DNA of 64,000 nt, from positions 372,001 through 436,000 of the forward strand of contig JAQGDQ010002377.1 of the NCBI GenBank assembly GCA_030141605.1, written 5' to 3'. How positions within the stretch are numbered: position 1 is the stretch's first letter; each line of letters opens with the position of its first letter. The notes below the pieces were generated by a model. That model saw only the letters and a list, made by a program, of their open reading frames with translations, searched no databases and was not told the DNA's origin. Positions 10,448 through 63,154 of this stretch are shown piece by piece. This DNA is from Tubiluchus corallicola (Eukaryota; Animalia; Priapulida). The position numbers and the translations under genes were made by a program.

Positions 10448-11155
10448 CTAAATGAGTCTGGAGGGCTACTAAATGTGTCTAAGAAAAGTCTCACATACTA
10501 ATATGTCTAGCACGGGTCTCCTATATTAAATGAGTCCATGAGGGATTACCCATACTAAATGAATCCAGGACGGGTCTCCGATACTAAAGGAGTCCAGGAT
10601 GGATCTTCCAAACTAAATCAGCCCCGGTTTCTCATACTAAATGAATCCACGATGAGTCACTCATACTAAATAAGTCCAGGATGAACCTCTCATACTAAAT
10701 GAGTACAAAATGAGTCTCTTATGCCAAATGAGTCCAGGATTTCTCTTTCATATTAAATGAGTACACGATAAGTCACTCATACTAAATGGGTACAAGATGA
10801 GGCTCTCATATTAAATGTGTCCTGGATAACTCTTTCACACTAAATAAATCCAGGATGAGTCTCTCATACTAAGTGAGTCCAAGATGAGTTTTTGATACTA
10901 AATGAGTCGAGGATGAGTCTTTTATAATAAATTAGTCAAGGATGAGTCAGTCGAACTAAACGAGTCAAAGATGAGCGTTGCATACTAAATGAGTCCACGA
11001 TAAGTCACTCATACTACATGAGTTCACGTGAGTCTCTCATACTAAATGAGTACAGGATGAGTCCTTCATACCAAATGAATCTAGGATGTTTTTTATGCTA
11101 ATTGCGTCTAGGATGAGTCTCTCATACTAAATGAGTCCAGGATGGGTCAGTGATG
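10448..11155. repeat. Minisatellite, 29-bp unit (consensus ~CATACTAAATGAGTCCAGGATGAGTCTCT), ~24 diverged copies
   Basis: catactaaat recurs at 10691 and 10981 (10 x 29 bp). There are no unique spacers. Confidence 0.93.
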
Positions 11156-17600: not shown

Positions 17601-18228
17601 TTAATTCGCATCGTAAATTTCGAACATACCTCGTCAAAATCACCTCGTACTACATGAACATCACTAGCAAGTGTTTTCAAGTAATCAAAAGACTCCTTTG
17701 TGCACAGATTACCCGTGCAAAGAATGTGCTGAATCTTTCCAGGAACTAGTAGTTTCTTGAACTTTTGAGGTAGACTGTTGCATCGATGTGGAATGTGCAG
17801 GTCTCCTAATACCAACACCAACTGAAATGTTAAAAACACATTTTGCACCAGTAATAATAATAATTATCATGTACTAATTATTATAATATTAATAATAATT
17901 ATTATGTAAGAAGAATAGTGGTACTGTTCTTCTGATCAAAAAAGAACTCACTGCACACAAGTTCATCTGGAAAGTATTGACTCTGTGTGAATGTACTTAA
18001 ATTACATCACAGATAAAACTGAGAACTTGAGTGATTTACCATCTTAGTGGTGCTAACGGTAAATAACATCTGTGGCTAATCTCAAGATTTTTATGTATCA
18101 CTACTAGCTGGTGCTAAAAAAGGCCGCGGGCGATAGTACTTTTAATATAATTTTTTTAGAAAATAAGGCACATGTGAACAAAATATAATTAAAACAGGCG
18201 AATTATCTAACTAAAATAAACTCACCAT
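14627..18228 (-). CDS. VPS29: Vacuolar protein sorting 29 (retromer subunit), 181 aa. Exons 18226-18228, 17630-17821, 17348-17461, 15568-15689, 14627-14741
   Basis: Spliced product [41 protein letters not shown]...[20 protein letters not shown]...[30 protein letters not shown]...[34 protein letters not shown] is near-identical to animal VPS29. All introns are GT-AG, phases are consistent, total 546 nt. Confidence 0.97.
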
Positions 18229-34400: not shown

Positions 34401-35900
34401 GGGTATTGGCCATTTATAAACGTCTTTGTTTCCTACTACAAGTTAATTTTGGTTTGTTTGCAGGTGGGAGTTCATCACAGACGAAAATGACATTGGCTTT
34501 GGCTTGTACCTGAAAACGGATGGCACTCCCATTGAAAAACTCAAACCGTCTGATTTAACGAATGTGCGAAGCTTGCAGCGGTGTAACTGCCATCTAGTGC
34601 CAGAGACAGGAAGTTTCATTGCAGAAGTTCCAGGCATATGTAAGTATATGATTATGCATTTGTGCAGCCCATCTTAGTTTTTTTAGCAAACACTATTGTT
34701 AGCCAGTTTCTGGATGAGTTAGTGCTTGTCACATAGTTCTTCTAGTTAGTTGAAAAGCATCTTTAATGTTATTTATAGAACAGAAGAACAGAGGACAGAG
34801 ATGCTTATCTATGCAGTGACAAGTAGGAGTGAGCATCGAATGTTCGAGTTTGAACATTCAAATCAAATTCGAACGAGTTTTTTTAGTTTGAATTCGATTC
34901 GAATGTAAAACTATAGATTCCAATATTCAGCACTTCAATCACATACATTCTTTATCATTAAAGTGATTGAAACATCATGCAATTAGCATAATTCAGCTGT
35001 GATTTCTGTGCACAATTTTAAACAAATTATTAGTGTTTTTTCAAATTCGATTCTATAGATTCGAATATTCATCACTTCAATCACATACATTTTTTATCAT
35101 TAAAATGATCGAAACATCATGCAATTAGCATAATTTAGCTGTGATTTCTGTGCACAATTTCAAACAAATTATTAGTGGTTTTACTGCAGAACAAAATCGA
35201 GTAATATGTATGATCCTTGTAAGACTATTTTACTGGTGATTCGAAAACTTGTTTGAAAATCTTTCAATTTGAATTTGAATTTGAAATACTGAAGCTCGTT
35301 TCGATTCGAATTTGCTTTCTGGCAGAGAATGCTCACCCCTAATGACAAGGTCGTTCAACCCTGTAGGGGATGTTAGTAGATCTGGTATTTCAGAAAATTA
35401 TTTCAATGGTAGTCTAGTCCTCGTCTGGAGCTTAGACTACAAAATGATCTAATTAAATTTCAAAGAGTAAGCTCTTTACAGACAGTAATTTAACATAAAA
35501 GTTACAAGGCATGAACAGAGTGAATTTTTTCAGACTGATTTTTTTTCATCAGTTATTTGACAATTATGCATTAAAAATTGATATATAATTAAGCTATTTG
35601 CGCAATCGATGATTAGATTGCTCTAACTGTTGCTGTATGCGACTTTCCAGATATGGAAGAAAGCTGTTTTTTTGTTTAAAATGCTGAAGAACAATTGGAA
35701 GCATATTGTTATAGTACTTTACAGCAAATGAATATTGCAGGTATTCTGTTTCGTGCAGCAAGCCACACTTGTAAAATTTCTTAGCGGAGTTTATTGTATT
35801 GTTTTTAGATGTCACGTTATTCGACAATTCGTACAGTTGGACAAAGAACAAAACACTATGGTATAAGGTTGATGTTCTTTCGCCTGATGATCGCTTGTAA
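19499..35900 (+). CDS. SEC14L2: SEC14-like protein (CRAL-TRIO + GOLD; SEC14L2/3/4-like), 394 aa. Exons 19499-19552, 23809-23878, 24311-24354, 24920-24982, 27281-27371, 27939-28033, 28374-28452, 29402-29482, 30408-30491, 31175-31281, 33104-33252, 34464-34639, 35809-35900
   Basis: MSGYFGDLSPTQSETLAE-FKTQVRD...DDYYYLRWLRARDFELKKSELMLRN...[31 protein letters not shown]...FGGQNRGPDGDPKC...YGGEIPKSYY...WEFITDENDIGFG...CNCHLVPETG...FDNSYSWTKNK follows SEC14L2 along its length. All 12 introns are GT-AG and phases sum to 1185 nt. Exact paralog assignment is uncertain. Confidence 0.93.
23270..23790 (+). mobile_element. LINE ORF2 C-terminal CCHC zinc-knuckle fragment plus probable 3' UTR in SEC14L intron 1
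   Basis: QLRMGYSKLN..HLHKIGGANSSLCECG...SEHFLSEC motif. Confidence 0.7.
28542..29189. mobile_element. Non-autonomous hAT-type transposon
   Basis: Ends TAAGGGTG...CACCCCTA, with a perfect 8-bp TSD GTTTATTA at 28534-28541 and 29190-29197. Confidence 0.8.
29636..30229. repeat. Minisatellite, 30-bp unit GACCTATTGTTCTGAATTAGTCTGTACTTA, ~20 copies, in SEC14L intron 8
   Basis: Directly visible, highly similar tandem copies. Confidence 0.97.
30978..31148. mobile_element. Tc1/mariner-type MITE (related partial copy near 25420-25555)
   Basis: TA-CAGTC..ACCTC...GAGGTTTGATT-ATA ends. The internal aatgccaa.ctcgcttaa...agcaaaacaaaat...tgccaacttttt..agtcccaaat sequence is shared with 25420-25555. Confidence 0.6.
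31421..31705. repeat. Local diverged direct duplication (~100 bp, ~180-bp period)
   Basis: tgtactggac.gcaacg...tagacaaaa.tttggagta.tttttgttaactcta...gagaaaatgtct occurs twice. Confidence 0.7.
32135..32958. mobile_element. Non-autonomous Tc1/mariner-pogo (Tc2-like) transposon
   Basis: Perfect 23-bp terminal inverted repeats (TIRs) CCGTATATACTCGCATATAAGCC, TA TSD on both sides, and subterminal catataagccgaccccc repeats. Confidence 0.9.
34824..35341. mobile_element. Non-autonomous hAT-type transposon with an internal ~130-bp duplication
   Basis: TIRs TAGGAGTGAGCAT / ATGCTCACCCCTA, TSD GTGACAAG/ATGACAAG (7/8 match), TTCGAA-rich subtermini. Confidence 0.82.
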
Positions 35901-42500: not shown

Positions 42501-45500
42501 CTCTGATTTTCTTTAATAAACTTCAGTATATTAGCTCAAAAGTCATTGTAATAATAATAGCAATTTATTTCCTTAATACTCATGGTACAGTTCAACCAAT
42601 TATGAAGTTGAAGTTTCCAATTGCTGCTTAAAAACAATTATCGTGATTGACAGTTTGTTTCAAAATGCAGACTCACACGAGTTACTCATGCATTCCCTTT
42701 TTTACCAGAAATTCAACTGATCAAAATTTGCATATACAACCTTTAATTCCTCTTGAGAAAAAGTGACAGTGCTGCTGCAGCTGCTGGCATCGACTATGGC
42801 ACTGCTCAAGCCTTGTTTCATTACTTGCCGCTGATAAATCTTTTCTTCTATGGTGCCCTGTATAAGACAAAATAACTAACACACCTGCAAATAAATATGT
42901 AATGCAACAGTAACATTGGTTAATACATATAGACAGCTAGGTAACAGAACCATCTCAAAACAGTATTGTAGGCCCCCAGAAAAGCAGTGTATTGGGACCC
43001 CCTACCTACACAACCATTCTGGAACAAAAATGTAAATGTCGATAAAATTAAACATATATTTATTGTATTGGTACTTCCAGTATAGTATAGTATAGCTTAG
43101 CATAGTATTTATTTATTGACAGCAAATCACAACATTCATAGATTAGCATGGGCCCGATGCACATCGAGTCCCGGGGCAACTGCCCAGCATGCCCATGCAT
43201 TAGAGATGCCTCTGCCATGCAAGGCTAATAGTACAACAGTTAAAGGTCTACATTTACTAGGAAGTGAAATGTGAAAGCAGGTTTAGAGAAAACAGAATTC
43301 CTACAATTAAGCTGTTACCGAATTGAAATATTTTATAACATATTTTCCTGAAGCAAAAGGTACAATGTAAGTACTGCCAACAAGTTGTTGGCATTTAGCA
43401 ACCAACAAACAAGGATCGTGAATGCATCTTCTCAAGCGGAGCAATAAGCGGCTTCATGTAACAATAAACCTTCGTTGTACAAAAGACTGCAGATCCCAAG
43501 TCAGATGTCACTAGAATGGTTATTTGCAATCTGCCAAGTGCTTTACAGTAAAAAAGACAATGACACCATCCCAGACACGGACTCCATAAGTGGTCCAATG
43601 GTTGAACTGCGCAGATAGAGTACAGTATCAGGAATTAGGTCTTTACAAGTGAGAACAGGCATATTCCAAGTTTTTTCACGTACTCCCAGCCACTAATGTG
43701 AGCTACTTTTCTTGTCTAAGAGTCACACCACAAGTTGAAAAAGTGCAAGGAAAAGATTGGAAGATTCATCTAGTAATACAACATCTACATTCATCAAGAT
43801 TAAGATTATGACAGAGGTTCGGCAAAACGTTTGTCAGTAATACGGTCATGTATTTGAGTGGGCCGGCTGACACTTTAAATGAGATCCTGACCTCCCCAGA
43901 CAATGTGATACTTGCTGAAAGACGATGTGATCAACCTGACAAGACGTTGTCCAGGACATGTGGGTCTCCCGCTATGATTCATCACAATTCAAATCAACAA
44001 CTCTTATGCATATAAAAAGCTAACAGTGCATTTCTGTAACTATCTACATAGTAGATGACAATGAGTGCAAGTTTTCTTGAACAGCTTGAACCACTTTCTG
44101 TCTGCAGAAGCAGAGAGTGGAGTCCTTTTGTTAGACATGTACAATTGTGCAGGCATTAGTATCCACATCATTTTACATCATTCAGTCAATTATAGGCATG
44201 ACATCAATACCATGGGACACTTCCAGCACCTGTGCCATAGTGGCCAGTATGCTGTGGATGCCTGTAATAAGCAGCATGCTAGGGTTCCCCGTTTGTGCAT
44301 GGTTAGTATGCATTATCATAATCTATAATTACATAATAATTCATAGGTTTTTGTTACTATTTTTACTAGGTGGCATTTAGCTAGCATGGCACATTACTGG
44401 GAAAGGGGAGACCAGAAAAGAAAAGCAGCAACCGCTACCTGCCAATTTCATGTGACGGGCAAATGATCCAAAAACTGTATCTAAACTAATTGCGTTATGG
44501 TTAGTAAATAAAACGATATTGTAGAAGAAAACACCTAAAAATGATTCAATCCAATTCTAAGAATAAAATTGCTTTTAAAAGACAGTAATAAAATACCACT
44601 GTGAGCAGACGATATATGTGCACTGTTCTTTTCTGTCCATCTCGCCATACACGAGCCATGGCCTGCAGGTCATTGGCCGGATTCCAGTCAATGTCGTAGA
44701 GAATAAGCCTCGAAGCTCCGATCAGGTTTAATCCTTGTCCGCCAGCTTTGCAGCTTAGTAAGAATACAGCTAGAATGCGAATACAACAGAATTTAATTAA
44801 TAATTTATGCAAGTCATGGATCGAACTCATCGTTGACAAAGATATCAAGCAGTTTCTTCTAGTATTAGTATTTATAAAATTTCATGTCCATAAGCTTAAA
44901 TAATGATGCCAAATTTAGGTGTGTTTGAAGTGACATATACCAACAAAATTACCACCTTTTTAGCCATTTCTAAATATGAGCAAGAATGCAAAACCAAACT
45001 ACATCACGATTTCACTAACCACATAAACAACTAAAACTCTACATACTTTCTGAAGCGTTCCTGTTGTTAAACTGATCTACCAGTTCTTGCCGTCTACTGG
45101 AAGGTGTTGTCCCATCCAGTCTCAAGTAACGATAATTGCTTTTAACGCACACTTCTTGTAAAATATCTAACGTCTAAAAACATTAACCACTTGATTACAA
45201 ATACATTTCAACTGCATCGATGTACAACAAATTTAGGACGAGGTTTCTCAGGAATTTACAAAATAAACAATTTAGTGGTTGTAGTTTACAAATAGTGGTA
45301 ACTTTTAACACAATTTAATTACGGTGTAACAATTAATACTCATAGTATATAGTATAATAATAAGTGCTATTAATACAATTATGAATGCATGTTTAAACTT
45401 TATTGCATTTTCTTTATGGCATATTCAGACGTCGAGACTTCTCCCGCAACTTCTCTCTGAGAGTACGCCACACGTGTGAATGGTTGGCAACTTTTCTTGC

Positions 45501-45812
45501 AGCTTATTGCAAACCCAGAAGGAAAAGAGAAAAGTTGCACAGCAAGTTGCGAGAGAAGTTGCCAAACCACTCACACCTGCAACTACTCTCAGACAGAAGT
45601 TGCGCAGCAAATTGCGAGATTAGTCTCTACGTCTGAACGTGCCAGTAGCATACCTCAGTATAATTTGAAACAACAACAGATTTCTCTACATTTTTGTTTG
45701 TTGCATGAAAAGAGTACAGCAAGCTAGATAACACAAGGAGTTTCCCTGAATGTTCTGCCAGTGACACGTGCTCTCCAGAAAACAATGACAGTATATCGTC
45801 AAAAAGGCACAA
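39533..45812 (-). CDS. RAD54B: DNA repair/recombination SNF2-family ATPase RAD54B, 3' part only. Exons 45654-45812, 45047-45173, 44597-44769, 42741-42857, 42081-42281, 39533-39607
   Basis: [12 protein letters not shown]...[17 protein letters not shown]...LRLDGTTP...[46 protein letters not shown]...[11 protein letters not shown]...FSQEELKDLFTL...CATHDLL...[12 protein letters not shown]...[14 protein letters not shown] and LSMxQLxxWxH favour RAD54B over RAD54L. GT-AG introns with consistent phases; 5' exons not seen. Confidence 0.92.
40368..40570. repeat. Near-perfect tandem duplication of ~100 bp
   Basis: actgaacggcaaccata...ctaattgcaccaggc occurs at 40368-40466 and 40472-40570. Confidence 0.9.
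40756..41760 (+). mobile_element. DNA transposon relic: putative left end plus frameshifted Cys-rich transposase-like N-terminus
   Basis: TTAA-GAACGCGTCC end, then caagATGGCGGCC start giving [12 protein letters not shown]...KCG...P...LLACTKD..AHL, and after a frameshift [12 protein letters not shown]. Family assignment is from recall only. Confidence 0.4.
42945..43214. mobile_element. hAT-like MITE
   Basis: Ends CAGAACCATCTC / GAGATGCCTCTG with GGGCCC-type subterminal motifs; TSD is degenerate. Confidence 0.55.
45417..45644. mobile_element. Palindromic MITE (PIF/Harbinger-like)
   Basis: Long imperfect inverted repeat TGGCATATTCAGACGTCGAGACT...AGTCTCTACGTCTGAACGTGCCA, flanked by TTA/GTA. Confidence 0.7.
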
Positions 45813-46559
45813 CTGTATGGAATAACAGACAGCCAAAATTAATATGCCATAAGAGTAATAAAACATAAGTTACATGCAGAAATTTAGTACAGTTAACTGT
45901 GCATGCTTGCACAGACAACAGTAATCAGAAAAATAAGGATTTTGATCAAGAAGTTGATTGACTAAGATACTAAGCTGGCGAATTCAGACTCAATTTGTGA
46001 AAGGAAATTTATCTTTTTTGAGAGGGATTACAATATTTTGTTTACGTACAGTATGTAGATTTAACAGTACTGCTAATTTACAACAGCTAGTGTTCTTGTT
46101 GGTAAGACAAAGTTAGTTTCAATTGTAGAAAAGTCATGTTCAAGACTACAGAATGTAAAATACCAAAAGCAAAATCAACATCAGAAATCAAAATTTTATA
46201 AGACATAGACAATTTATTTTTCTTCTCTTAAGCATAATGCAACAAATCAACAATTGACTGGATGTATGTTCCTTCCATTTCAGGACTGTGAATTTATAAC
46301 GATATCATTTTGAAGTAACTTTAAAAAAAATAAAATCTATAATACTAACTAACATGTACCTAATAATAGGCCCAGATCTATAATAAAGTCACAGGAAAAA
46401 AGTCACGGAAAAAGCCACAGTTCTGGCTAAGGTCAGGGTTAGGGTTATTTTTTTTCCAATGCATTTTGTCAGCAACTTTTTTACCTGGGATCAGATAACC
46501 AGTAATGATAGTAATGCTAGTTGTTACAGTAGTCAGCTATAAGACTAGATCTTAACTTT

Positions 46560-49578: not shown

Positions 49579-51343
49579 GGTTGTGACAGGATCTGGCAAA
49601 GGATTCTGTGATAATCAGGAATTATCAAGGATAATCCTTTAGATGAAACAGTGAATTGGCAGAAGTGTCTCAGCCCGGTTGGGAAGATGAATACACTCCC
49701 TGAAGGAGATAAGCAGCCCGAATCAGTGTAGTAAGTGAAACAGTTTAAAGTTCATATAGAATCCAGTGGTCATCTATATCGCATTCACTGACCAGTGCTA
49801 GGTTGCGGAGTTGAGCCTAAAAGCACATCAATGTGGGTTCCTGATTGATGAAAGTCGACCCCAAACCTGACTCTTGAGGCCTGACTCCCAGAAGTTCTTA
49901 AAATTTTGATTTTTGAGGCATTTTATTAACCAGACTCAAACCATTAGATGATAGATATTATATTATGAACCTTAAGTAAAGGTACTGCTTAATATTTATG
50001 TTTAAGGCAGGAGTATTTTATTATCAACAGACTGTGGCTTTTCTTTACCTGAAGATCTAATCAGCAAAACATTAGAACCAATGGAATTTTAAATGCATTG
50101 TTTTAAGCTGCAGACCCTGCATTGATCAGCTTCAGTATTGTTTAATTTTACTTATCTAAGCATATGCCATTATAATTCGGCTATCACCCTTGCCACAGAG
50201 ATACTAAAAAGTATTATTATACTGTATTAATAGCATGTAATTATATAAAAATAACTTCCTGAAGTTTTTCTAGACAATAAAAGAGTAGCTATAAATTGTT
50301 GATATTATGATTTATAAATTATTGAACATGTTTTATTTGTTTTGACTTAAAGATTTGAAAGACATGGGGAAGCATTTTGCAATTTTTTAACTCATTATCA
50401 TTGAATATTAGAGCTACATTTATAGCCGAATGACTGTTATAAGTCTGTTGCTACTAAGCTTTAATTATCTGACTTTTTTGGTGAAACAGTTGTCTTAGCT
50501 ATCAAAACTGACTAATTTGTTGCTAAAATAGAACATGTGACAGCAATTTTTGCAAAAAGTTAAAAGTCAAATGAAAACTAACATGAGAAAACGAATAATT
50601 TTTAAGAACAAGAAACAAAGCCATTAGAAGTGCTATTTAGTACACCGCTGTGCGCTATCTTCCGATATGATTTATTGAAGACATTTTATTTTGTTTTCCA
50701 AACTCTTAGCATCGACTAAGCACGGCATCGAATTGCACCAAGGAAATTCTGTCCTTTTGTCCGTTATGCTACAGATTTTGTTATGTTACTTTTGTTTTCT
50801 ATATTATTGTGTTATGGTTTTGAAGTAGTTTTGCAAGGTTGTCTCTCATACCAGTTCAGTTCTTTGGTGTCTTGATCATCTTAGGCGTGTATTTTTTGTT
50901 GCCTCAGATGTGAGATATCAAAAGCCGACAATATACCTTTAGTCTGTTCCCGCAAAATTCAGTTACTTTTTTAGTCACTTTTCGATTTATACATGCCCAT
51001 TAAAAAATTTTACGAAACGAAATTGTGTAAATACATGGCAACAATTTCAAAATAGAAAGCATGAATTTTTTTTACTCGAGAGAGGTACTCTGACTTTTCA
51101 GACTCAGAAATAAACACTTGTACTTCAATTACTTGTGTTGGATAAGTAATCCATGTTGTTTATGTTGGGAATTAGGGTTATGATTCTATTTAATTTTACT
51201 GTAGCATTATTCTTCGAGAAAAATCATTATTTAATGTTTTTAATCTCGAATTTTATATTAGTTAAAGTTAACGTTTTATTCACAGGTGAACAATTTGATG
51301 CTAGGAAAGCAAGTGAATAGTCTGCACAATCCCTTGTTCAATC

Positions 51344-54300
51344 ATGAATGCTTATGAAATGAACGAAGAGCTGCAAGCTGCCATTGAACAGTTAGAACTT
51401 GAGCAAATCGATCTGTGTGGAGAGCAGGCTGGCGAAAGCTCTATTTCAGAACTGGTTTATACTAACAGCATCAAAAATATTACTAGCAGCGTAACAGATG
51501 TGGGCTCAGTACAGCAGCAGCAAGCAGGCAGTCAGACTCGTTCAGCTGTGACTCATGCTACGTATCAGCAGCAGGCTCTATCCAGAATAAATGAGTTTAA
51601 TGTCAGCCTTGAGCTTATGAATACAGCCTGCGTTGATAGTAGAGATGGTTTGTGTGCGCTGGGTACCGGGACCGCTGTAAAAGATTTTGTCACTTTGGAC
51701 GAATTCCAAGCTCTGCAGCAGAATCAAATGAAAGAATCATTTTCTGCTAGTGGGTTACTAGAGAGTTTAAACAATAATGAAATAACTAATGGTACACCAG
51801 AGCATTTAGACAATAATGAAAATGTTTTTGACACTCTACAGAGTGAAGGGTACATTGAAACTGCTATTGATTCATTAGGGACATTAGAGAATAACGACGT
51901 TGCTGTGACTATTGGCAGCAATGCATTAGATATAAATCTACTGCCGTTCAGCCAGCAAGACTCAGATCATTCGTTGTCTAGGCAACAACACACTACTTCA
52001 CAAAAAGTAGAAATCAATAAGCAATATGAATTGGATCTGCCCATAGAAGATGTTACGGAGCAACGTCTTGCTAGTGATGTTACCAAGCAGATGTGCAGTG
52101 ATTATGGTATTGATGTGAAATTCAGTGTGGAAAATTTTACAAGTATGCCTGTAAATAATCAGGATAATGACTTGAATCGTGATATAGATGATTCTGATTC
52201 TGATTCTTCAGATTCAGATTCTAATTCTGACGACTTTGATAATCAGGACAGTATTCAGAATTCAGTTGCTCCTTTAAATGAAAAAACTTCTGATAGCATA
52301 ATTAATGGTTCGGTTTTCGAACGCAATGAAGCTAAAGTGATAAGTGGTTTTCCCATTAGTCTAAACAGTGATAATGTTGAACAATTACAAGTAGAATGTA
52401 AAATCACAAATTCTCCAGTAAATATTGAAGAATGTCAAAAATACACAATAGAAAATTCCTGTAAGACGATCTTATTCAAAACTGATGAACAGTGTGAATG
52501 TCTCGACTGTGGTGCATCACTGAGTAATCTTCTGAGTTCACAAGAACATCTTGGATTAATGACAGCCGTTGTGAAGTTGTGTACATGCTTACAGGAAGGT
52601 AGAAAATGTTTACATTATGCAAATGAAGTAAGCACCTCTAAGTTACATGTGAGTGAACTATACAGTTGTCATATGTGTGAAATAACTTTTCACAGACTGT
52701 CTGCATTAACAAATCACATGGTTATGAAACATAATGATGAGGACTCAACTGACAATCAAAGTGTTGCTGCTAATTACATACAACCACCTGCTAGTTTGCA
52801 AAAGACCCATAAATGTGGAATTTGTCCAGCTTCATTTTCCAATGTTTTTAATTTGCAAAAGCATGGTAGAGTTGTTCATAGTGCAATACCAAAACAGTAT
52901 CGATGTACTAAATGTACTGCTTCTTTTCAAGCCTTGAAGAATTTAACATTACATCTTCGGCTTCACGAAAATGAGCAGCAGTCATTTGAGTCTCAGCGAA
53001 TAGATAAAATAGCGACAAAAACCCCAACAGCAGGAACTGATGAAGCCAGTAAGCCTGATCAAGCTAGTAAGCCTGACAGTATTGACAAAATACCAGTGAA
53101 TGGCATTAAGAAGGCTGGGAATACAGATGAGAAATCAATAAAGTGTAGAATGTGCCCGGCTGCATTTAAACATACAGCAAGCCTTAAAAGGCACATACAA
53201 ATCACTCATAACAAGATAAAAATGTATTCATGCAAACTCTGCCCAGCTAGATTTGGAGTTAAATCAACAGTTAAAAAACATATGAGTGATGTGCATGGGG
53301 GTGTGCCTAAAAAGTATAAATGTCAACATTGTACTGCTTCATACAGAGCCCTGAAGAATTTGCAGCGGCACATGAAACTTCATATTGCTAAATTACAGCC
53401 TGTACAGGAAAAAAAGAAAAACCAGTACCTCTGTTTTTTGTGTAGCACAAGATGTTCATCAGCGGATGTTCTTAAAGAACATATTAAAACCCACTCTGAG
53501 ACGAAAGAGCCAACGGCAGATATAACAACTACACCAAGAAAAGCACTTCTGAAGATATTTAAGTGTAATGTCTGCTCAGTTAGTTTTCACAGTCGACTAG
53601 ACAGGGATGTGCATTTGCAAACTGCTCATGAGAAGGCAAAATCAACACCTGAGCAACAAAACAGTAGCTTGGATTCCAGTATATGCAGGGTATGCAAAAA
53701 CAGTTTTAATTCTAAAGCTCTCTTGGACCAGCACATGAAGCAGTATAAGAAGCTGTATGAGTGTAATGCTTGCCCTGCTATGTTCAAAGTATCCACTAAC
53801 AGAAATAAACACGTGAATAATGTGCATTCTGGTGCATTAAAGGCTTTCCGATGCGATGTTTGTGGAGGTGGATTTCACAGAGAATATAGCTTGCAAAGCC
53901 ACATGCTACTGCATAATCAAGCCCACAAAGAGCAATATAAGTGTGATAAGTGTGATTTCAATTGTAATTCGTCAGAACAGCTGAAGACTCATATCATTTG
54001 CAAGCATTCAGTAACTGCACAAAGTCCTGGAATTATCATAATGGACACTCCAACTGTAAGCCTGCAAAAAATCAAAGTAGAAGATTCACATGCCGAGGCT
54101 ATTACTATTCAGGAGTCTGCAGACATGGATTTTTGTGAAGATATGGAGCACTGTTGTGACATTTGTGGAAAGTTTTTCATGAAAGAGTCAGAGTTACTAG
54201 TACATGAAAAAGTACACATGGCACTAAAACCTTATAAATGTGGAATTTGTGGTCTAGACTTTTGTGACATGAGTACACTTGACATCCACCAAACATCACA

Positions 54301-57300
54301 TACCAACAAGTCATATGAAGCATACACAAAAATGGTTGCCGAGACTTCAAATTCAAGCTGCTATGTTGACTTCCAAAATATTGGTATGCGAGAACTACAC
54401 AGCAGTGGTAATGAAAATCTTAGTAATGAGAGAAAAGTGCCATTTGGGAAGAAAAGAGAAAGAGTTTATGAGTGTGACACGTGCAAGAAAGTCTTCAAAG
54501 ATGGAGGAACTCTGAAAGTTCATAAGCGCATACACACAAACGAAAGGCCATACATTTGTCACATTTGTCAAGCAACATTCAGACAACACCACCATCTAGT
54601 CAGACATGTAGCAAGCCATAGTGATGATAAACCATTTTCTTGTGATGTGTGCGGAAAAAGATTCAAATTAAGCGAATACCTCACAACACACAAGGCTGTG
54701 CATTCACAGGCTAAGAAATTCAAATGTGGAGTATGCGGCAAAGATTTTCGCCTATACAGCGATTTGAGAGCTCATCAGAAAGTTCATGCATCAAAAAACG
54801 CAAAGACTGATGGTATGTTTGACAATAAGCTTGCTTTTGATAGTCATGATACTAGTCACTCTAGGCTTAAACCCCACAAATGTCCCGTTTGTAAGAACGG
54901 TTTTAAAGTGGTTCGCCACATGAAAATTCATTTGTGGTCACATTCTAAGAACAATATGCACTATTGTCTCACTTGCGGAAAAAAATTTCAATCTCAAGTT
55001 GGCTTAGCTGTCCACAAAAGAATTCACATTGTAAAAAAAGAACTTGAAGAGGTTGTGAATGCAAGCACTAACTTGACGCAGTACGTGACCAGCACTAGTA
55101 AAGGTAAACAGTACCAATGTCCCGTATGTGAAGTGAAATTTGCACAGTCTACCTATCTGAGTGTACACTTGCGAGTTCACACAGGCGAGAAGCCATATAA
55201 GTGTGAGGTTTGCAATAGTCGTTTTCGACAAAGAGCCCATCTTAAATGTCACATGTTCACTCACACAGACCACAAACCTTTTTCTTGCAAAATATGTGCT
55301 GCATCTTTTAAGCAACTTTCAGCTTTAAAAAAACATGGTTTAGTACACACTGACTTAAAGCCATACAAATGTGATTCTTGTAGTGCAGAATTTGCACAAT
55401 CAACCGACTTGCTAAATCACATTATGGTACATAACGAAAATAGACCCTATACTTGTCAAACTTGTTTCGCTACATTTAAAACTGAATCATTCTTCAATAG
55501 CCACATTAAAGTACACACCCATCTTAAACCTCACGTTTGTGATGAATGTGGAAAAGACTTTCGAATCGCTGCAAATCTAACAGTTCATAAGAGAACTCAC
55601 TCTAACGAAAAGCCATACCAGTGTCAAATCTGCTCAAAGCGATTTAAACAAACAGGACACTTGAAAGTTCATTTGTCAATACATGCAGACTCGAAACCAT
55701 ATAAATGTGATTCTTGTGGTGCCAGTTTTAGGCAACCAGGAAACTTAAAGAGTCACCAAACCGTTCACACAGATGAAAGGCCACATGTATGTGACATTTG
55801 CCAATCAGCTTTTAAAACGTTTAGTTATTTGCAAAGCCACAAGCGAATACATACAGATTTGCGTCCATATAGCTGTACATGTGGAAAAACATTTAAAACA
55901 CCAGATGGATTGAAAGCGCACGAGAAAACTCACACAGATGAAAAGCCATATGAATGTCGCCATTGTCATGCACGCTTTAAGCAGCAGCCTCACCTCAAAA
56001 CTCATCTACTTACACATAGTACTCACAAACCTTATTGCTGTGACACTTGTGATGCACGCTTTAAACAGTCATCCCACTTGAAAGTTCACATGGCTGTTCA
56101 TAGCGATGTGCGACCATTTCCTTGTCATATTTGTGGTGCGGCATTTAAAACATCAACTTCACTCAGTAGTCATAAGCGCATTCACACGGACCTGAAGCCA
56201 TATGTATGTGACGTATGCAACAGAGCCTTTAAATTTTCGGAAGGACTAAAATCTCACAAGAAAACACACTCAGCTGACAAACCTTTTTCATGTGACCAGT
56301 GTGGAGCATGTTTTAAGTTGGCTGGTTATCTCAAAAGCCATATGCTAGTTCACACTGAAATACGACCCTATTGTTGTTCTACATGTGGAGCTACTTTTAA
56401 AACAGCCAGTTACCTCCATAACCACAGCAAAATTCACACAGACATTCGACCTCATATTTGCCACATTTGTGGAAAAGGTTTTAAAATGTCATCAAACTTG
56501 CGAGCTCATGCACGAACTCATTCAAACGAGAAACCATATTCTTGTGACCAATGCTCTGCACAGTTTAAGCAAATTGCTCATTTAAAGATGCATGTCAGAA
56601 CTCATTCTGATTTGAAACCCTATAAATGTGATTCCTGCGAATCTCGTTTCCGACAGTCTGCGCATTTAAAAGTTCACATGGCTGTTCACACTGAATCACG
56701 ACCATTTGCTTGTGAAATTTGTGGAGCTGCATTTAAAACACAATCATCATTAAACTCACACAAGAAAATCCATACAGACATTAAACCTCATTCATGTGAT
56801 GTATGTGGGAAATCATTCAAATTTGCTGTTGGATTAAAAACTCACAGGCGAATTCATACAAATGAGAGACCTTTCTCTTGCGATACATGCCATGCTAGTT
56901 TTCGACAGGCTGGCAATTTGAAAAGTCATATGGCAGTGCATACAGATGTTCGACCGTACGCATGCCCAACATGTCAAGCTGCCTTTAAAACATCATACTA
57001 TCTCCAGAATCACATTAGAATACACACGACTGCTCGTCCATTTCAATGTGATGTCTGTGAAAAATCTTTTAAATTTAAGGAGGGATTACAATCTCACAAA
57101 AAGACACACACAAATGAACGCCCATTTGAGTGCGATACATGCCATGCACGATTCAAGCAAGCTGCTTATCTCAGAAGTCACATGCTTGTACATTCAGATG
57201 AAAGAAATCATTTTTGTGACATTTGTGGATCAGCTTTTAAAACTGCTGTTTATCTTGCCAATCATAGGCGCATTCACACTGATATGAGACCATACAAATG

Positions 57301-60300
57301 TGATATTTGTTACAAGGATTTCAAGCTGCCCGATGGCTTAAAGGCACATAAGAAGACACATTCCGATGAAAAACCATACTCGTGTAATATATGTGGTGCA
57401 AAATTCCGGCAAACAGCCCACGTAAAGGCACACATGTTAACCCATTCAGATGCTAAACCTTATAAGTGTGACACCTGTGATGCTTGTTTTAAGCAGTCAG
57501 CTCACTTAAAATCACATCTTGCTGTACACAGTGAAGAAAGAAAGTACTCATGTGATATTTGTTATTCTGCTTTTAAAACATCTACTGCTCTAAACAGTCA
57601 TAAAAGAATACATACTGATATAAAGCCTTATATATGTGCTACATGTGGCAATGCTTTCAAAACACCAGACGGATTGAAATCTCACCAGATTAGTCATATG
57701 GATGAACGTCCGTTTGAATGTGATACATGTCATGCTAAATTTAAGCAATCCACAAACTTGAAATATCACATGGTGGTGCATTCGGAAGAAAGAAATTATA
57801 CATGTGATATATGTGACTCTGCTTTTAAAACTATGGCATATCTTACCACACATAAGCGTATTCATACAGAACTGCGTCCATACATTTGTGAATGTGGAAA
57901 AGACTTCAAGACACCTGATGGACTGAAATTGCATAAACGTACACACACAGGTGAGAAGCCATACTTCTGCAGTTTATGTGGTATGAGATTCAGGCAGTCA
58001 GGACATCTTAAATGTCACATGCAAACTATACATTCCGATTCTAAGCCATTTAAATGTGACACATGTGATGCATGTTTTAAACAGTCAGCAAACTTGCGCA
58101 GCCACATGGCCGTACATTCTGATATTCGTCCTTATCCATGTCCTATTTGTGAGGCCACTTTTAAAACATCTACTTCATTAAGCAGCCATAAACGAATACA
58201 CAGTGATATTAAACCACACATTTGTGACGTATGTGAAAAAGCATTTAAAACATCAGAAGGACTGAAGTCACACAAACACTCACACACAGATGCTAGACCC
58301 TTTGAGTGTGATACATGCCATGCCAAATTCAAGCAAGCAGGAAATTTAAAGAGCCACATGGTAGTGCATACTGAAGAACGTCCATGGACTTGTGATGTTT
58401 GTGAAGCCTCCTTTAAAACACAAGCATACCTTCATAGTCACAAACGTATCCACACTGATATAAGGCCTTACATTTGTGAATGTGGAAAAGATTTTAAAAC
58501 ACCCGATGCATTAAAACTTCATAAACGTACACATAGTGATGAAAAACCGTACGCTTGTGAAATTTGTCATTCAACATTTAAGCAGCTTGCCCATGTACGA
58601 GTTCACATGGCTACACATTCTGATCTCAAGCCATATAAATGTGACACTTGTAGTGCTAGCTTCAAGTTGGCAGCATATTTGAAAACCCACATGATTGTTC
58701 ACACTGAAGAAAGACCATGGATATGTGACGTTTGCCAAGCTGCTTTTAAAACGTCTAGTTATCTTAGCTCACATAAGAAAATTCACACAGATTTGAGACC
58801 ATACATTTGTGATCAGTGTGGAAAAGACTTCAAGCTTCCTGATGCCCTGAAACTTCACAAGAGAACACATTCAAATCTAAGACCGTTTTCATGTGATGTA
58901 TGTGGTCAGAAATTTCGGCAAACTGCACATGTTAAAGCACACATGCTTACGCATTCAGATTCAAAACCATTCAAATGTGATACTTGTGATGCTTGTTTTA
59001 AACAGTCCGGGAATTTGAAATCTCATATGACAGTACATTCTGATGTTCGGGCTTACTGTTGCCCCATATGCGGAACAGCTTTTAAAACAACCACATCATT
59101 AAACAGTCACAAACGGGTTCACAGTGACATTAAGCCTCATATCTGCTCCACTTGTGGCAAAGCTTTTAAAACTAGAGAAGGGCTAAAGTCACACAAATAC
59201 ACACACACAGATGAACGTCCATTTGCATGTGATACATGCAGTATGAGTTTTAAGCAATCCTCCAATTTAAAAAGTCACATGATTGTGCATACTGATGTAA
59301 GACCACACGTTTGTGATATATGTCAGGCAGCTTTTAAAACAGTTAGTTACCTCACTAGTCATAAACGAATTCACACAGATTTGAGACCATATAACTGCGA
59401 AATATGTGGAAAAGATTTCAAGTTACCAGATGGATTGAAACTCCATAAACGAATACACACCAATGAAAAACCTTTCTCGTGTGATACATGTCAAGCTGCC
59501 TTCAAGCAGTCTGCTCATCTCAAAGTTCATATGACAGTTCATACAGACGAGAGAAATCACATTTGTGATATATGTGAATCAGCTTTTAAAACTGCATCAT
59601 ACCTAGCCATTCATAAAAAAACACACAGTGATGTAAGACCTCATATCTGTGATATCTGTGGCAAGGGATTCAAGTTTACAGATGGGCTGAAAGCTCATAA
59701 AAAGACTCATACATCTGAGAAGCCATACCAATGTGAGATATGTTTTAGACGATTTCGACAAGGAGGACATTTAAAAATACATCTTCTTACACATTCTGAC
59801 TCAAAACCTTTTAAATGTGACACATGTGATGCATGTTTTAAACAGTCTGGCCATTTAAAGGTTCACATGTCAGTACATTCAGATGAAAGACCTTTCCCTT
59901 GTGCAGTGTGTGGTGCTGCATTCAAAACATCAACATCTCTGAGCACCCATAAACGTATTCACACTGACCTGAGACCCTATTCCTGTGACTTGTGTGACAA
60001 AGCATTCAAGTTTTCCACAGGCTTGAGAGCTCATAAAAAAACTCACACAGGAGAAAAGCCATATAGCTGCAAGATTTGCGGTGCTCGATTCAGACAAATT
60101 GGTCATGTGAAGGTACATATGACAACTCACTCAGACCTGAAGCCATATAGCTGTGACACATGTAACGCTTCTTTTAAATTAGCAAGTTACTTGAGAAGCC
60201 ATATGGTTGTCCATTCTGAAGAAAGAAAATGGACTTGTGACGTTTGTCAAGCATCATTTAAGACAAATACCTACCTTAATTCGCATAAGAAGATACATAC

Positions 60301-63154
60301 AGATTTACGGCCACACATTTGTGATATATGTTCCAAAGATTTCAAGCTGCCGGAAGCACTGCGCTTACATAAAAGAACACACACTGACATTCGACCTTAT
60401 TCATGCGAGCTGTGCAATGCAAAGTTTCGCCAAACAGGACATCTCAAGTGTCACATGCAGACAAGGCATTCAGATTTGAAACCATTTAAATGTGATACCT
60501 GTTCTGCATGCTTTAAACAACCTGCAAATTTAAGAACTCACATGCTAGTGCACACTGATGAAAGACCACATCAATGTCAGATATGTGGTGCTGCTTTCAA
60601 GACAACTACTGCTCTTAATTCTCACAAACAGGTGCACAGCGATGTACGCCCATTCATTTGTGCAAGATGTGGTAAGTCATTCAAAACCCGTAATGGGCTG
60701 AAATCACATAAAATCACTCACACTGATTCTAAGCCCTTTGAGTGTGATACATGCAGTGCCTGTTTCCGACAATCAGCACATTTGAAGGTTCACATGACTG
60801 TTCATTCTGACTACAGAGGATATCCTTGTACAGTATGTGGTGCTGCTTTCAAAACAGGTACTTCTTTGAAAAGTCACAGTCGTATACATACTGACATCAA
60901 GCCCTTTATATGTGATGTGTGTAACAGAGCATTTAAGTCAAAAGATGGGTTAAAACATCACAAGATAACTCATTCTAATGAAAGACCATTTGCATGTCTA
61001 CAATGCAGTGCTAAGTTTAAACAAGCCACTTATTTGAAAAACCATCAGTTAGTTCATTCAGATGTAAAACCATTTCAATGCCAAGTGTGCTCAGCTGCTT
61101 TTAAGCTGCCGGCTTATCTTAGGTCACACATGATGATTCACGGAGATTTAAAACCGTACCAGTGTCAGATATGCAATAAGCAATTCAGACATTGGAGCAC
61201 GCTGAAGATCCATACAAGAACACACACAAATGAACGGCCTTATGAATGTGAGACCTGCCATAAGATGTTCTCACAAAATGGTCATCTAAAGTTGCACATG
61301 ATGATTCACTCGGGCGAAAAGCCTTACTCGTGTACCGTGTGTAATAGGCGTTTTCGACAACATAGACACTTATTAACGCACAAAGTAAAACATGTAACTG
61401 ATCGACCATACCAATGTAATAGTTGCCAATCTGCTTTTAAAACACATACTTCATTGCAGTCTCATAAACGAATTCACACTGGTGAAAAACCGTATGAGTG
61501 CACCACGTGTTGCACAAGTTTTAGACAGCTGAGTCACTTAAGGAGGCATCAACAATGCCACAGAAACCCGGCTTCAAGGTTGAAACCATTTAAATGCACT
61601 TCTTGTCCAAAAGCATTTAGAAAGGCCACACATCTCCGAGCACATGAAATTGTCCATACTGATAGTAAGCCTTTCAAGTGCCCAATCTGTGATGCAGAAT
61701 TCCGTCACGGACGTTCGCGTAAAACACATATGAAATGTCACCAGCCTACACTCATGCATCAGTGTGATGTGTGCTTACAAAGCTTTAGTGAAGAGGAAGA
61801 ACTAAGATCACATTCTGAAAGTCATGTACAAGAAAGTGCATATACATGTGAACAATGTGGCGAAAAGTTTAAGAGAGCATCGCTTTTGTCAGCTCATACT
61901 GCATTACATGAGAGAGAGAAATTATCTGCTGATGGCTACATTGAATTTGATAGACCGTATCCTTGTTCACAGTGTAGTGCACAATATGAATCAAAACAAG
62001 GATTAGCAAAACATATGCTTGTTAGACATGCAACACTTGAAGACCTGCGTTGCAACTTGTGCCACAACACATTTACCTCATTGCAGTTACTACGTGAACA
62101 TATGAGAACTCACAAAGAAAAAGAACACATGTGCAATGTATGCAACAACACTTATACCTCAAAACATTTATTACGTATACATATGAAAATTCACAAACAT
62201 ACTAGTAAAGAACATGTTTGTAATGTGTGTGGGAAAGTTTTTAAAAATGCTAGTAGCCTTTGTCATCATAGAGAAATTCATGTTGAAGGCAGACCTCATG
62301 TGTGCACAAAATGCAATGCGTCTTTCAAAACAAAGAAAACTCTTTGGGCACACAGTAGGATTCATACAAGGGAAAAAGTGTTTTCTTGTAATAAATGCGG
62401 TGAAAAGTTTTCAGTAAAGGAACAGCTACTGCAACATAAGCAAAGTGCTCATTCAGTTGGTAAGACTAAGAAATGCTCTACTGCCAGTAAGAATTATGAC
62501 TGCGAACAATGTGCTGCCAGTTTCAAGTTCCTGACACTTTTAAAACAACACAAAGAGGCCCACAAAACTGCCATATGTGACAAAACACAACTTGTGAAAG
62601 GAACTGCCAGCAAACCACGAAAGACACACAAGTGTCCCGAGTGCAACAAATTGTTTACTCATTCGTGGAATTTGAAAAATCACCTGTATTCTCATCGTGC
62701 AAAACCCGTTTACAAATGTAATCTTTGTCCAAGTACATTCAGTAGGGAAGCACATTTAGTTAGGCACATAGCATGCCATAAAGGAAAAGAATTGTCAGTA
62801 AGTGTCAAAGTGCAAAGAATTCCTCATTTGCAAGAACAGCGCAATATGTCACAGACAGTTAATGATGCCCCAATACCAACTCCTGAATTCAATTATTTGC
62901 ATAACACAAACGAAATAGTTTTAGACAAAATTCCTATTAAGCAAGAACCCCTAGATTACTCCCTTGTGGAGGATGATACCTCCAGCCCTGTGCATGAAGA
63001 AGGTAGTAATGTAGATGATGCTAACTTCTGTATTGAAGAATGTAACATAGAAGAGTTTTACCTTTCACCATATTTGGGTGAAAGCAACAAAGAGACAGTA
63101 GGTGAAGGCTGTTCTGCTATCACCATTAAGAAGGAAATGTCGCACTTCTTGTAA
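51344..63154 (+). CDS. Giant poly-C2H2 zinc-finger protein, 3936 aa, ~110 fingers, CDS in one uninterrupted ORF
   Basis: 11,811-nt open frame. Acidic N-terminus, ~20 scattered fingers, then ~81 nearly contiguous fingers (55112 to ~61910) and ~9 more. A splice acceptor ttttattcacag lies at 51285 with in-frame stops before the ATG, supporting this start. Confidence 0.95.
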   Translation: MNAYEMNEELQAAIEQLELEQIDLCGEQAGESSISELVYTNSIKNITSSVTDVGSVQQQQAGSQTRSAVTHATYQQQALSRINEFNVSLELMNTACVDSRDGLCALGTGTAVKDFVTLDEFQALQQNQMKESFSASGLLESLNNNEITNGTPEHLDNNENVFDTLQSEGYIETAIDSLGTLENNDVAVTIGSNALDINLLPFSQQDSDHSLSRQQHTTSQKVEINKQYELDLPIEDVTEQRLASDVTKQMCSDYGIDVKFSVENFTSMPVNNQDNDLNRDIDDSDSDSSDSDSNSDDFDNQDSIQNSVAPLNEKTSDSIINGSVFERNEAKVISGFPISLNSDNVEQLQVECKITNSPVNIEECQKYTIENSCKTILFKTDEQCECLDCGASLSNLLSSQEHLGLMTAVVKLCTCLQEGRKCLHYANEVSTSKLHVSELYSCHMCEITFHRLSALTNHMVMKHNDEDSTDNQSVAANYIQPPASLQKTHKCGICPASFSNVFNLQKHGRVVHSAIPKQYRCTKCTASFQALKNLTLHLRLHENEQQSFESQRIDKIATKTPTAGTDEASKPDQASKPDSIDKIPVNGIKKAGNTDEKSIKCRMCPAAFKHTASLKRHIQITHNKIKMYSCKLCPARFGVKSTVKKHMSDVHGGVPKKYKCQHCTASYRALKNLQRHMKLHIAKLQPVQEKKKNQYLCFLCSTRCSSADVLKEHIKTHSETKEPTADITTTPRKALLKIFKCNVCSVSFHSRLDRDVHLQTAHEKAKSTPEQQNSSLDSSICRVCKNSFNSKALLDQHMKQYKKLYECNACPAMFKVSTNRNKHVNNVHSGALKAFRCDVCGGGFHREYSLQSHMLLHNQAHKEQYKCDKCDFNCNSSEQLKTHIICKHSVTAQSPGIIIMDTPTVSLQKIKVEDSHAEAITIQESADMDFCEDMEHCCDICGKFFMKESELLVHEKVHMALKPYKCGICGLDFCDMSTLDIHQTSHTNKSYEAYTKMVAETSNSSCYVDFQNIGMRELHSSGNENLSNERKVPFGKKRERVYECDTCKKVFKDGGTLKVHKRIHTNERPYICHICQATFRQHHHLVRHVASHSDDKPFSCDVCGKRFKLSEYLTTHKAVHSQAKKFKCGVCGKDFRLYSDLRAHQKVHASKNAKTDGMFDNKLAFDSHDTSHSRLKPHKCPVCKNGFKVVRHMKIHLWSHSKNNMHYCLTCGKKFQSQVGLAVHKRIHIVKKELEEVVNASTNLTQYVTSTSKGKQYQCPVCEVKFAQSTYLSVHLRVHTGEKPYKCEVCNSRFRQRAHLKCHMFTHTDHKPFSCKICAASFKQLSALKKHGLVHTDLKPYKCDSCSAEFAQSTDLLNHIMVHNENRPYTCQTCFATFKTESFFNSHIKVHTHLKPHVCDECGKDFRIAANLTVHKRTHSNEKPYQCQICSKRFKQTGHLKVHLSIHADSKPYKCDSCGASFRQPGNLKSHQTVHTDERPHVCDICQSAFKTFSYLQSHKRIHTDLRPYSCTCGKTFKTPDGLKAHEKTHTDEKPYECRHCHARFKQQPHLKTHLLTHSTHKPYCCDTCDARFKQSSHLKVHMAVHSDVRPFPCHICGAAFKTSTSLSSHKRIHTDLKPYVCDVCNRAFKFSEGLKSHKKTHSADKPFSCDQCGACFKLAGYLKSHMLVHTEIRPYCCSTCGATFKTASYLHNHSKIHTDIRPHICHICGKGFKMSSNLRAHARTHSNEKPYSCDQCSAQFKQIAHLKMHVRTHSDLKPYKCDSCESRFRQSAHLKVHMAVHTESRPFACEICGAAFKTQSSLNSHKKIHTDIKPHSCDVCGKSFKFAVGLKTHRRIHTNERPFSCDTCHASFRQAGNLKSHMAVHTDVRPYACPTCQAAFKTSYYLQNHIRIHTTARPFQCDVCEKSFKFKEGLQSHKKTHTNERPFECDTCHARFKQAAYLRSHMLVHSDERNHFCDICGSAFKTAVYLANHRRIHTDMRPYKCDICYKDFKLPDGLKAHKKTHSDEKPYSCNICGAKFRQTAHVKAHMLTHSDAKPYKCDTCDACFKQSAHLKSHLAVHSEERKYSCDICYSAFKTSTALNSHKRIHTDIKPYICATCGNAFKTPDGLKSHQISHMDERPFECDTCHAKFKQSTNLKYHMVVHSEERNYTCDICDSAFKTMAYLTTHKRIHTELRPYICECGKDFKTPDGLKLHKRTHTGEKPYFCSLCGMRFRQSGHLKCHMQTIHSDSKPFKCDTCDACFKQSANLRSHMAVHSDIRPYPCPICEATFKTSTSLSSHKRIHSDIKPHICDVCEKAFKTSEGLKSHKHSHTDARPFECDTCHAKFKQAGNLKSHMVVHTEERPWTCDVCEASFKTQAYLHSHKRIHTDIRPYICECGKDFKTPDALKLHKRTHSDEKPYACEICHSTFKQLAHVRVHMATHSDLKPYKCDTCSASFKLAAYLKTHMIVHTEERPWICDVCQAAFKTSSYLSSHKKIHTDLRPYICDQCGKDFKLPDALKLHKRTHSNLRPFSCDVCGQKFRQTAHVKAHMLTHSDSKPFKCDTCDACFKQSGNLKSHMTVHSDVRAYCCPICGTAFKTTTSLNSHKRVHSDIKPHICSTCGKAFKTREGLKSHKYTHTDERPFACDTCSMSFKQSSNLKSHMIVHTDVRPHVCDICQAAFKTVSYLTSHKRIHTDLRPYNCEICGKDFKLPDGLKLHKRIHTNEKPFSCDTCQAAFKQSAHLKVHMTVHTDERNHICDICESAFKTASYLAIHKKTHSDVRPHICDICGKGFKFTDGLKAHKKTHTSEKPYQCEICFRRFRQGGHLKIHLLTHSDSKPFKCDTCDACFKQSGHLKVHMSVHSDERPFPCAVCGAAFKTSTSLSTHKRIHTDLRPYSCDLCDKAFKFSTGLRAHKKTHTGEKPYSCKICGARFRQIGHVKVHMTTHSDLKPYSCDTCNASFKLASYLRSHMVVHSEERKWTCDVCQASFKTNTYLNSHKKIHTDLRPHICDICSKDFKLPEALRLHKRTHTDIRPYSCELCNAKFRQTGHLKCHMQTRHSDLKPFKCDTCSACFKQPANLRTHMLVHTDERPHQCQICGAAFKTTTALNSHKQVHSDVRPFICARCGKSFKTRNGLKSHKITHTDSKPFECDTCSACFRQSAHLKVHMTVHSDYRGYPCTVCGAAFKTGTSLKSHSRIHTDIKPFICDVCNRAFKSKDGLKHHKITHSNERPFACLQCSAKFKQATYLKNHQLVHSDVKPFQCQVCSAAFKLPAYLRSHMMIHGDLKPYQCQICNKQFRHWSTLKIHTRTHTNERPYECETCHKMFSQNGHLKLHMMIHSGEKPYSCTVCNRRFRQHRHLLTHKVKHVTDRPYQCNSCQSAFKTHTSLQSHKRIHTGEKPYECTTCCTSFRQLSHLRRHQQCHRNPASRLKPFKCTSCPKAFRKATHLRAHEIVHTDSKPFKCPICDAEFRHGRSRKTHMKCHQPTLMHQCDVCLQSFSEEEELRSHSESHVQESAYTCEQCGEKFKRASLLSAHTALHEREKLSADGYIEFDRPYPCSQCSAQYESKQGLAKHMLVRHATLEDLRCNLCHNTFTSLQLLREHMRTHKEKEHMCNVCNNTYTSKHLLRIHMKIHKHTSKEHVCNVCGKVFKNASSLCHHREIHVEGRPHVCTKCNASFKTKKTLWAHSRIHTREKVFSCNKCGEKFSVKEQLLQHKQSAHSVGKTKKCSTASKNYDCEQCAASFKFLTLLKQHKEAHKTAICDKTQLVKGTASKPRKTHKCPECNKLFTHSWNLKNHLYSHRAKPVYKCNLCPSTFSREAHLVRHIACHKGKELSVSVKVQRIPHLQEQRNMSQTVNDAPIPTPEFNYLHNTNEIVLDKIPIKQEPLDYSLVEDDTSSPVHEEGSNVDDANFCIEECNIEEFYLSPYLGESNKETVGEGCSAITIKKEMSHFL

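Follow-up and report, generated by a model that had tools for sequence, protein, structure and literature searches.

An unusually long C2H2 zinc-finger array in the priapulid Tubiluchus corallicola contains 73 consecutive fingers without Arg or Lys at base-contacting positions

How very long arrays of zinc fingers engage DNA, and with which of their fingers, is an open question. It is raised by a gene located in a 64,000-nucleotide stretch of the Tubiluchus corallicola genome (hereafter the window), for which the first-pass annotation had reported 67 consecutive C2H2 fingers devoid of Arg and Lys at the base-contacting helix positions −1, +3 and +6. The same annotation had proposed that the target is A/T-rich, or that the protein binds mainly the DNA backbone or DNA shape, RNA or protein.

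The fingers are encoded within one open reading frame of the + strand (51317–63154), and the features of the locus are as follows:

51284..51285, + strand: putative splice acceptor (ttcacAG) ahead of the coding exon, called from the sequence rather than from spliced RNA
51344..63154, + strand: coding sequence in one exon, 3936 aa when read from the first ATG; a pattern count gives 109 C2H2 fingers, with matches to Pfam zf-C2H2 families
51344..52666, + strand: acidic, Gln/Ser-rich N-terminal region with no Pfam families (0)
52667..55027, + strand: fingers 1–19, dispersed or in short clusters, several with Arg or Lys at −1 or +6; weaker constraint
55118..61561, + strand: fingers 20–96, 77 in succession without a break, no linker exceeding 8 residues
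55370..61477, + strand: fingers 23–95, by pattern count 73 consecutive fingers without Arg or Lys at −1, +3 and +6
55622..60973, + strand: 64 fingers in 18 modules (10 ABCD, 8 BCD), delimited by comparison of finger identities
60143..60790, + strand: stretch compared with a copy found in sequencing run X5
61595..62779, + strand: fingers 97–109, C-terminal and loosely linked, in which Arg and Lys are back at the contact positions
62936..62962, + strand: IKQE beside PLDYS, short motifs that could occur by chance

An in-frame TGA (51314–51316) lies between the predicted acceptor and the ATG at 51344, and therefore no upstream domain could be spliced in frame via this acceptor. A short frame opened by an upstream ATG (51298–51357) runs across the main start codon in a different reading frame. 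Pfam analysis of the N-terminal 450 aa revealed no KRAB, SCAN, BTB, ZAD or SET domain; with no such effector domain and with a stop before the ATG, the protein does not fall among the KRAB, SCAN, ZAD or BTB zinc-finger proteins, unless another acceptor further downstream is used. An Atlas search with the N-terminus gave a best score of 0.79, below the level of a lead, and nothing at 0.8 or above, and an orthologue search with residues 1–800 found no match among proteins of 2169–6904 aa. Near the C-terminus, we take IKQE to be a SUMO-consensus-like motif and the adjacent PLDYS to be CtBP-motif-like.

Contigs of run X1 tile the open reading frame almost without differences, and this run may itself be the source of the window; contigs of runs X4 and X5 cover parts of the frame independently. 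Since there is such independent coverage, and the repeats are too diverged to have been collapsed, an assembly artefact is unlikely. Some X5 contigs join opposite strands inside the array (61225–61653 and 55711–56350); these joins are probably fold-backs of the library or assembly, and possibly inversions. Run X6, which we guess to be RNA, yielded short contigs of approx. 91–95% identity at four places in the frame and at one just past its stop codon; we give these no weight as evidence of expression.

The genes neighbouring the zinc-finger gene contain introns. One of them is represented by exons for the C-terminal half of an SNF2-family helicase (Helicase_C matches; 42705–45869, − strand), presumably RAD54B-like by its motifs. 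As we found no N-terminal SNF2 motifs on the − strand from 45.9 to 64 kb, one of the helicase introns may harbour the zinc-finger gene in antisense orientation. The window also contains metallophosphoesterase-fold exons (17276–17863, − strand), VPS29-like in sequence, and exon fragments at 27833–34674 (+ strand; weak GOLD_2 match at 34447–34674), presumably of a SEC14-like protein. Repetitive DNA is represented by broken fragments of a LINE-type reverse transcriptase (RVT_1; 7829–9195, + strand), two minisatellites (10467–11148, 29 bp, ~24 copies; 29635–30229, 30 bp, ~20 copies) and a long GTA-type microsatellite (22–337).

Fingers were counted by the C2H2 pattern, which places 67 of them within 55364–60988, three with C-x-C. 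None of the 67 carries Arg or Lys at −1, +3 or +6, as had been claimed, and the run free of these residues proved longer than reported, at 73 fingers; position +2 likewise lacks them in 67/67. The residue preferences described for the helix hold as well: Q (26), T (26), L (7) and F (5) occupy −1 in 64/67 fingers; H (16), Y (14), G (14), N (10), S (6) and A (5) occupy +3 in 65/67; S (29), V (9), A (7), T (6), L (5) and N (4) occupy +6 in 60/67. Lys or Arg is nearly invariant at −2 (66/67) and common at +5 (46/67). Among the flanking fingers of the same gene, 15/36 have Arg or Lys at contact positions.

For comparison we used 249 proteins returned by similarity searches, 246 of them with 15 or more fingers; they were selected by likeness to the query, which makes the comparison conservative, and some are perhaps mis-joined gene models. 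Arg or Lys is present at one of the positions −1, +3 and +6 in 3674/7983 control fingers (46%), and the longest run without them among the 246 query-like controls is 23 fingers, compared with 73 here. The longest tight array among 247 controls (looser pattern) has 35 fingers, so that the run of 77 is about twice as long; one control has 109 fingers in total, in clusters of 7 at most. The array also differs from the controls in having Lys or Arg at −5 in only 20/67 fingers (77% in controls) and a net charge of +1.8 per finger (control median +2.6), which is the 5th percentile of 243 controls.

The modules are assembled from four classes of finger, whose signatures from −1 to +3 are Q..H (A), Q/L..H/N/Y (B), T..Y/S/A (C) and T/F/L..G/A (D). 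Position −1 is invariant in two of these, being Gln in all 10 A fingers and Thr in all 18 C fingers. The three fingers with the short C-x-C spacing (55874 CTC, 57887 CEC, 58475 CEC) belong to class D. Synonymous sites between repeats are saturated (pS 0.77–0.82, pN 0.26–0.29) and Tandem Repeats Finder reported nothing over the array, which indicates that the array is old and without ongoing homogenisation; the best internal finger pair is 81% identical in DNA.

It had further been noted that D-type linkers replace TGEKP. TGEKP indeed occurs only twice in the 67-finger core, and 44/67 linkers have Asp in second place, versus 3.8% of 5407 control linkers; the five linkers that had been named as the main ones, however, cover just 14/67, and 42 distinct pentamers are present. 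The linkers are 7 residues long throughout the core, with +2 occupied by G, D or N in 53/67, K/R at +4 in 67/67, and T/S (+1), K/R (+4) and P (+5) together in 57/67. As these last residues are kept, the replacement of TGEKP is conservative and no evidence against DNA binding, and the argument built on it is weak. TDERP, for example, occurs naturally as a CTCF linker, and Asp and Asn are the next-best residues after Gly for the C-cap conformation. In the account given in PMC11327367, T, R/K and P are conserved linker positions in the DNA-binding SP/KLF proteins, and the structures considered there have Gly as the C-cap, so Asp may lower the affinity. We regard the core linkers as a conservative variant, possibly of lower affinity.

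The AlphaFold2 model of a seven-finger unit shows seven canonical beta-beta-alpha fingers (pLDDT 86.7, pTM 0.44), and the modelled C-x-C class-D finger still folds as a finger. The consensus C-x2-4-C-x12-H-x3-5-H, F(−3), L(+4), the beta-beta-alpha fold and an H-C linker of TGEKP type, both in its short length and in its T/S, K/R and P residues, are those of the Kruppel/TFIIIA type. Judged from its sequence, the protein is a classical tandem C2H2 protein, for which sequence-dependent DNA binding is predicted.

With moderate confidence, we propose that the array is a multivalent binder of A/T-rich double-stranded DNA, with low affinity per finger. In 24/67 fingers Q(−1) and H/N(+3) are combined with K/R(+5) and an uncharged, mostly small residue at +6, and Table 1 of PMC7317221 lists QLAHLRA against AGA and QRANLRA against AAA. 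The same two helices are found in Aart (PDB 2I13), with Q(−1), H/N(+3), basic +5 and small +6; Aart differs in being a designed six-finger protein with TGEKP linkers, Ser at −2 and also Arg-bearing fingers.

A natural parallel is offered by the ZFC4 cluster of SALL1/SALL4, which, as described in PMC9838217, also lacks Arg and Lys at −1, +3 and +6 and carries small residues, polar or aliphatic (S, T, G, A, N, V, I). According to this source, the two fingers of SALL4 ZFC4, which recognise AT-rich DNA, have S/S/A/I and T/G/N/V at −1/+2/+3/+6, and their close approach to DNA is due to small uncharged side chains. If the same chemistry operates here, selection would be expected to keep long charged side chains away from +6. 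The parallel that we propose would extend to the pericentric localisation, the micromolar affinity and the broad preference for AT-rich sequence reported there (PMC9838217). The differences are that ZFC4 is a two-finger cluster with a TGEKP linker that docks in mode 1 (PMC9838217), whereas here 77 fingers are joined, largely by D-type linkers, with a basic −2 residue at every junction. The protein is not a SALL/Spalt family member, since its 77-finger run has nothing of the dispersed double-finger clusters with a TGEKP-linked ZFC4; no SALL chain was among the best 60 PDB matches listed. What the two share is the use of small uncharged residues for base contact.

The basic −2 residue matches the one that defines the functional DNA-docking modes 2 and 6 in the description of PMC7293014, and backbone contacts backing weak base readers are presented as general in animal fingers (PMC5588721). 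Of the targets that had been suggested for the array, A/T-rich DNA is the best supported, by the 24 AGA/AAA-like fingers and the SALL4-type chemistry, and binding mainly to backbone or shape is not favoured, given the low charge, the scarcity of K/R at −5 and the invariance of −1 in classes A and C.

As a multivalent A/T-reader, the array would bind by modules of three to four fingers making many weak contacts, and not by one long code. In class A and B fingers, Gln(−1) and His/Asn(+3) would recognise triplets resembling AGA or AAA; in class C, Thr(−1) would recognise triplets that contain T; and class D, with Gly at +3, would add little specificity. The small uncharged residues at +2, +3 and +6 may bring the helix close to the thymine methyls, as in SALL4, and Lys/Arg at −2, +5 and linker +4 may contact phosphates in the role that normally falls to −5. 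With its 18 nearly equivalent modules, the array would then gain avidity on repeated or compositionally AT-rich DNA (a satellite, a repeat family or AT-rich domains), which would suggest a repressive or architectural role.

Several observations qualify this proposal. The low charge and the lack of K/R at −5 in most A, B and C fingers argue against strong DNA binding, and would imply weak modules used multivalently. The mode-1 docking of SALL4 also counts against the proposal, given the basic −2 residue at every junction of the array. His at +3 is a guanine reader and, as it occurs in 16/67 fingers, the target should not be purely A/T. Moreover, code-based predictions for natural fingers are characterized as error-prone in PMC7293014.

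Binding of RNA, structured or A/U-rich, through Lys/Arg at −2 and +5 and through the aromatic residues Tyr(+3) (14/67) and Phe(−1) (5/67), is unlikely. Fingers that bind dsRNA (JAZ/ZNF385 type) are defined by long linkers between fingers, and those of the core are uniformly short. That classical fingers are able to bind RNA (as PMC5100589 describes) and that the −5 phosphate contact is mostly lost would agree with such a function, but the T/S-x-x-K/R-P linkers are of the TGEKP type described as predictive of DNA binding (PMC11327367), the net charge is low, and the fingerprints match DNA-selected helices. Nothing in our analysis points to either RNA or protein as the ligand.

We consider it distinctly improbable that the Arg/Lys-free pattern was merely inherited from approximately four amplified fingers, or reflects a species-wide habit, without any functional message. 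The 67 fingers are not independent because they descended from about four types, and a naive statistic is inflated because 64 of them fall into 18 modules from four classes; four independent fingers would all be free of Arg and Lys with P of about 0.085, a value that leaves room for inheritance. Arrays that are poor in Arg/Lys and modular also occur in the lizard and snake proteins P0046, P0063 and P0084. The presence of Arg/Lys in the flanking fingers, on the other hand, argues against a species-wide habit, as far as one gene can. In addition, the saturated synonymous sites imply ample time for change, and GC3 (0.29) favours Lys codons.

A sharper test is whether Arg and Lys were kept out while the positions changed, for which a tree of the 73 fingers was built without the contact codons. 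Parsimony requires 34 changes at +6 and 15 at −1 on this tree. In close control finger pairs, ~25% (+6) and 27% (−1) of changes lead to Arg or Lys; against this null, drawn from non-independent pairs, and with a tree resting on 72 bases per finger, their absence is significant at +6 (P 1e-4) and −1 (P 0.009), in simulations on the tree 0/3000 and 0.044, respectively, and not at +3 alone (P 0.18–0.20). Since this tree has poor resolution, a second count took only the fewest changes that each class requires, giving P 0.013 at +6 (at least 15 changes), 0.21 at −1 and 0.70 at +3 (joint 0.002). The signal accordingly lies mainly at +6, where none of the at least 15 changes introduced Arg or Lys, in contrast to +1, which gained them in 4/64 fingers. 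Tests allowing for descent thus still reject simple inheritance of the Arg/Lys-free state, and Arg and Lys are excluded from +6.

Run X5 contains a collinear copy of the gene, approx. 5–6% diverged and closer than any internal repeat pair, which on sequence grounds is an orthologue or a recent paralogue. Its comparison with 60143–60790, covering about 8/67 fingers, revealed 27 synonymous and 5 replacement codons (pN/pS ~0.05, with 33 of 35 differences listed). The replacements (Arg to Lys at +5 and at +11, Asp to His in a linker, Thr to Ser at +2 and Ser to Asn at −6) all fall outside −1, +3 and +6. In the N-terminal part (52688–53367) there are 11 synonymous and 19 replacement codons, a ratio of ~0.45 (again with 33 of 35 differences listed). 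Synonymous divergence from X5 differs between the array and the N-terminal region (0.22 vs 0.09, P 0.005). The 77-finger array is under purifying selection.

A role of the array as a structural rod or protein scaffold, its helix face contacting a repeated protein partner or neighbouring fingers, is very unlikely. The low charge would suit a rod, as would the hydrophobic patches that particular classes carry off the DNA face (H-M-x-V-H in class B fingers, I/L at linker +3 ahead of class D), but K/R at −2 and linker +4 occupy nucleic-acid-facing positions, and the model consists of independent fingers without fixed packing, which is expected in the absence of DNA and is thus a weak objection. 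Least probable of all is the wrapping of the array around one continuous tract of ~200–230 bp, with fingers of the same kind recurring at each turn of the helix: modules average 3.53 fingers, which at 3 bp per finger (~10.6 bp) is close to one turn, and finger identity peaks at lags 7, 11, 14, 18, 21 and 28, but phase-keeping is not significant against shuffled modules (P 0.22 for a period of 3.5, 0.09 for a fitted period) or under duplication of 2–6 modules from a 4+3 seed (P 0.11–0.28), and arrays of many fingers lose their register with B-DNA.

Among known proteins no orthologue came to light: searches with the core found generic finger proteins only, with 26–44% identity among the 120 matches listed and, in a 50%-cluster library, 29–42% among the 150 listed; the Atlas search with the core returned generic finger clusters only. 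The reptile ZNF91-like proteins named above have arrays of 24–30 fingers. These, Xenopus Xfin (37 fingers; PMC7614390) and the hemipteran ZF271-like/APEZ proteins (3–45 fingers; PMC6444547) share with the present protein a lineage-specific tandem array that grew by internal duplication, and the insect proteins, like ours, have neither KRAB nor any other effector domain. PRDM9 resembles our gene in having many related fingers in one exon, but here Pfam finds no PR/SET or KRAB domain, the repeats are saturated rather than homogenised and far from near-identical, and the contact positions are conserved, not hypervariable. Narrow phrase searches of the literature retrieved no description of an array so long or so devoid of Arg; subscription papers and supplements may hold longer examples.

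The feature is real, selected and unusual in scale. In a speculative and rather improbable extension of the A/T-reading proposal, a single polypeptide with ~18 SALL4-like AT-reading modules, whose 3.5-finger period is possibly matched to the helical turn, would coat or cross-link AT-rich satellite DNA over hundreds of bp and contribute to chromosome architecture. Its contiguous C2H2 array would then be the longest on record, and the protein would be a zinc-finger equivalent of the AT-hook chromocentre proteins.

The gene is under strong purifying selection and provides one module in 18 natural versions, with Arg and Lys excluded from +6 and a basic −2 residue common to all junctions. It permits a direct test of whether dozens of fingers can, by avidity, read base composition instead of a fixed motif, and of the effects of Asp-for-Gly linkers. 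As this array shows, long finger arrays need not be fast-evolving, arms-race genes.
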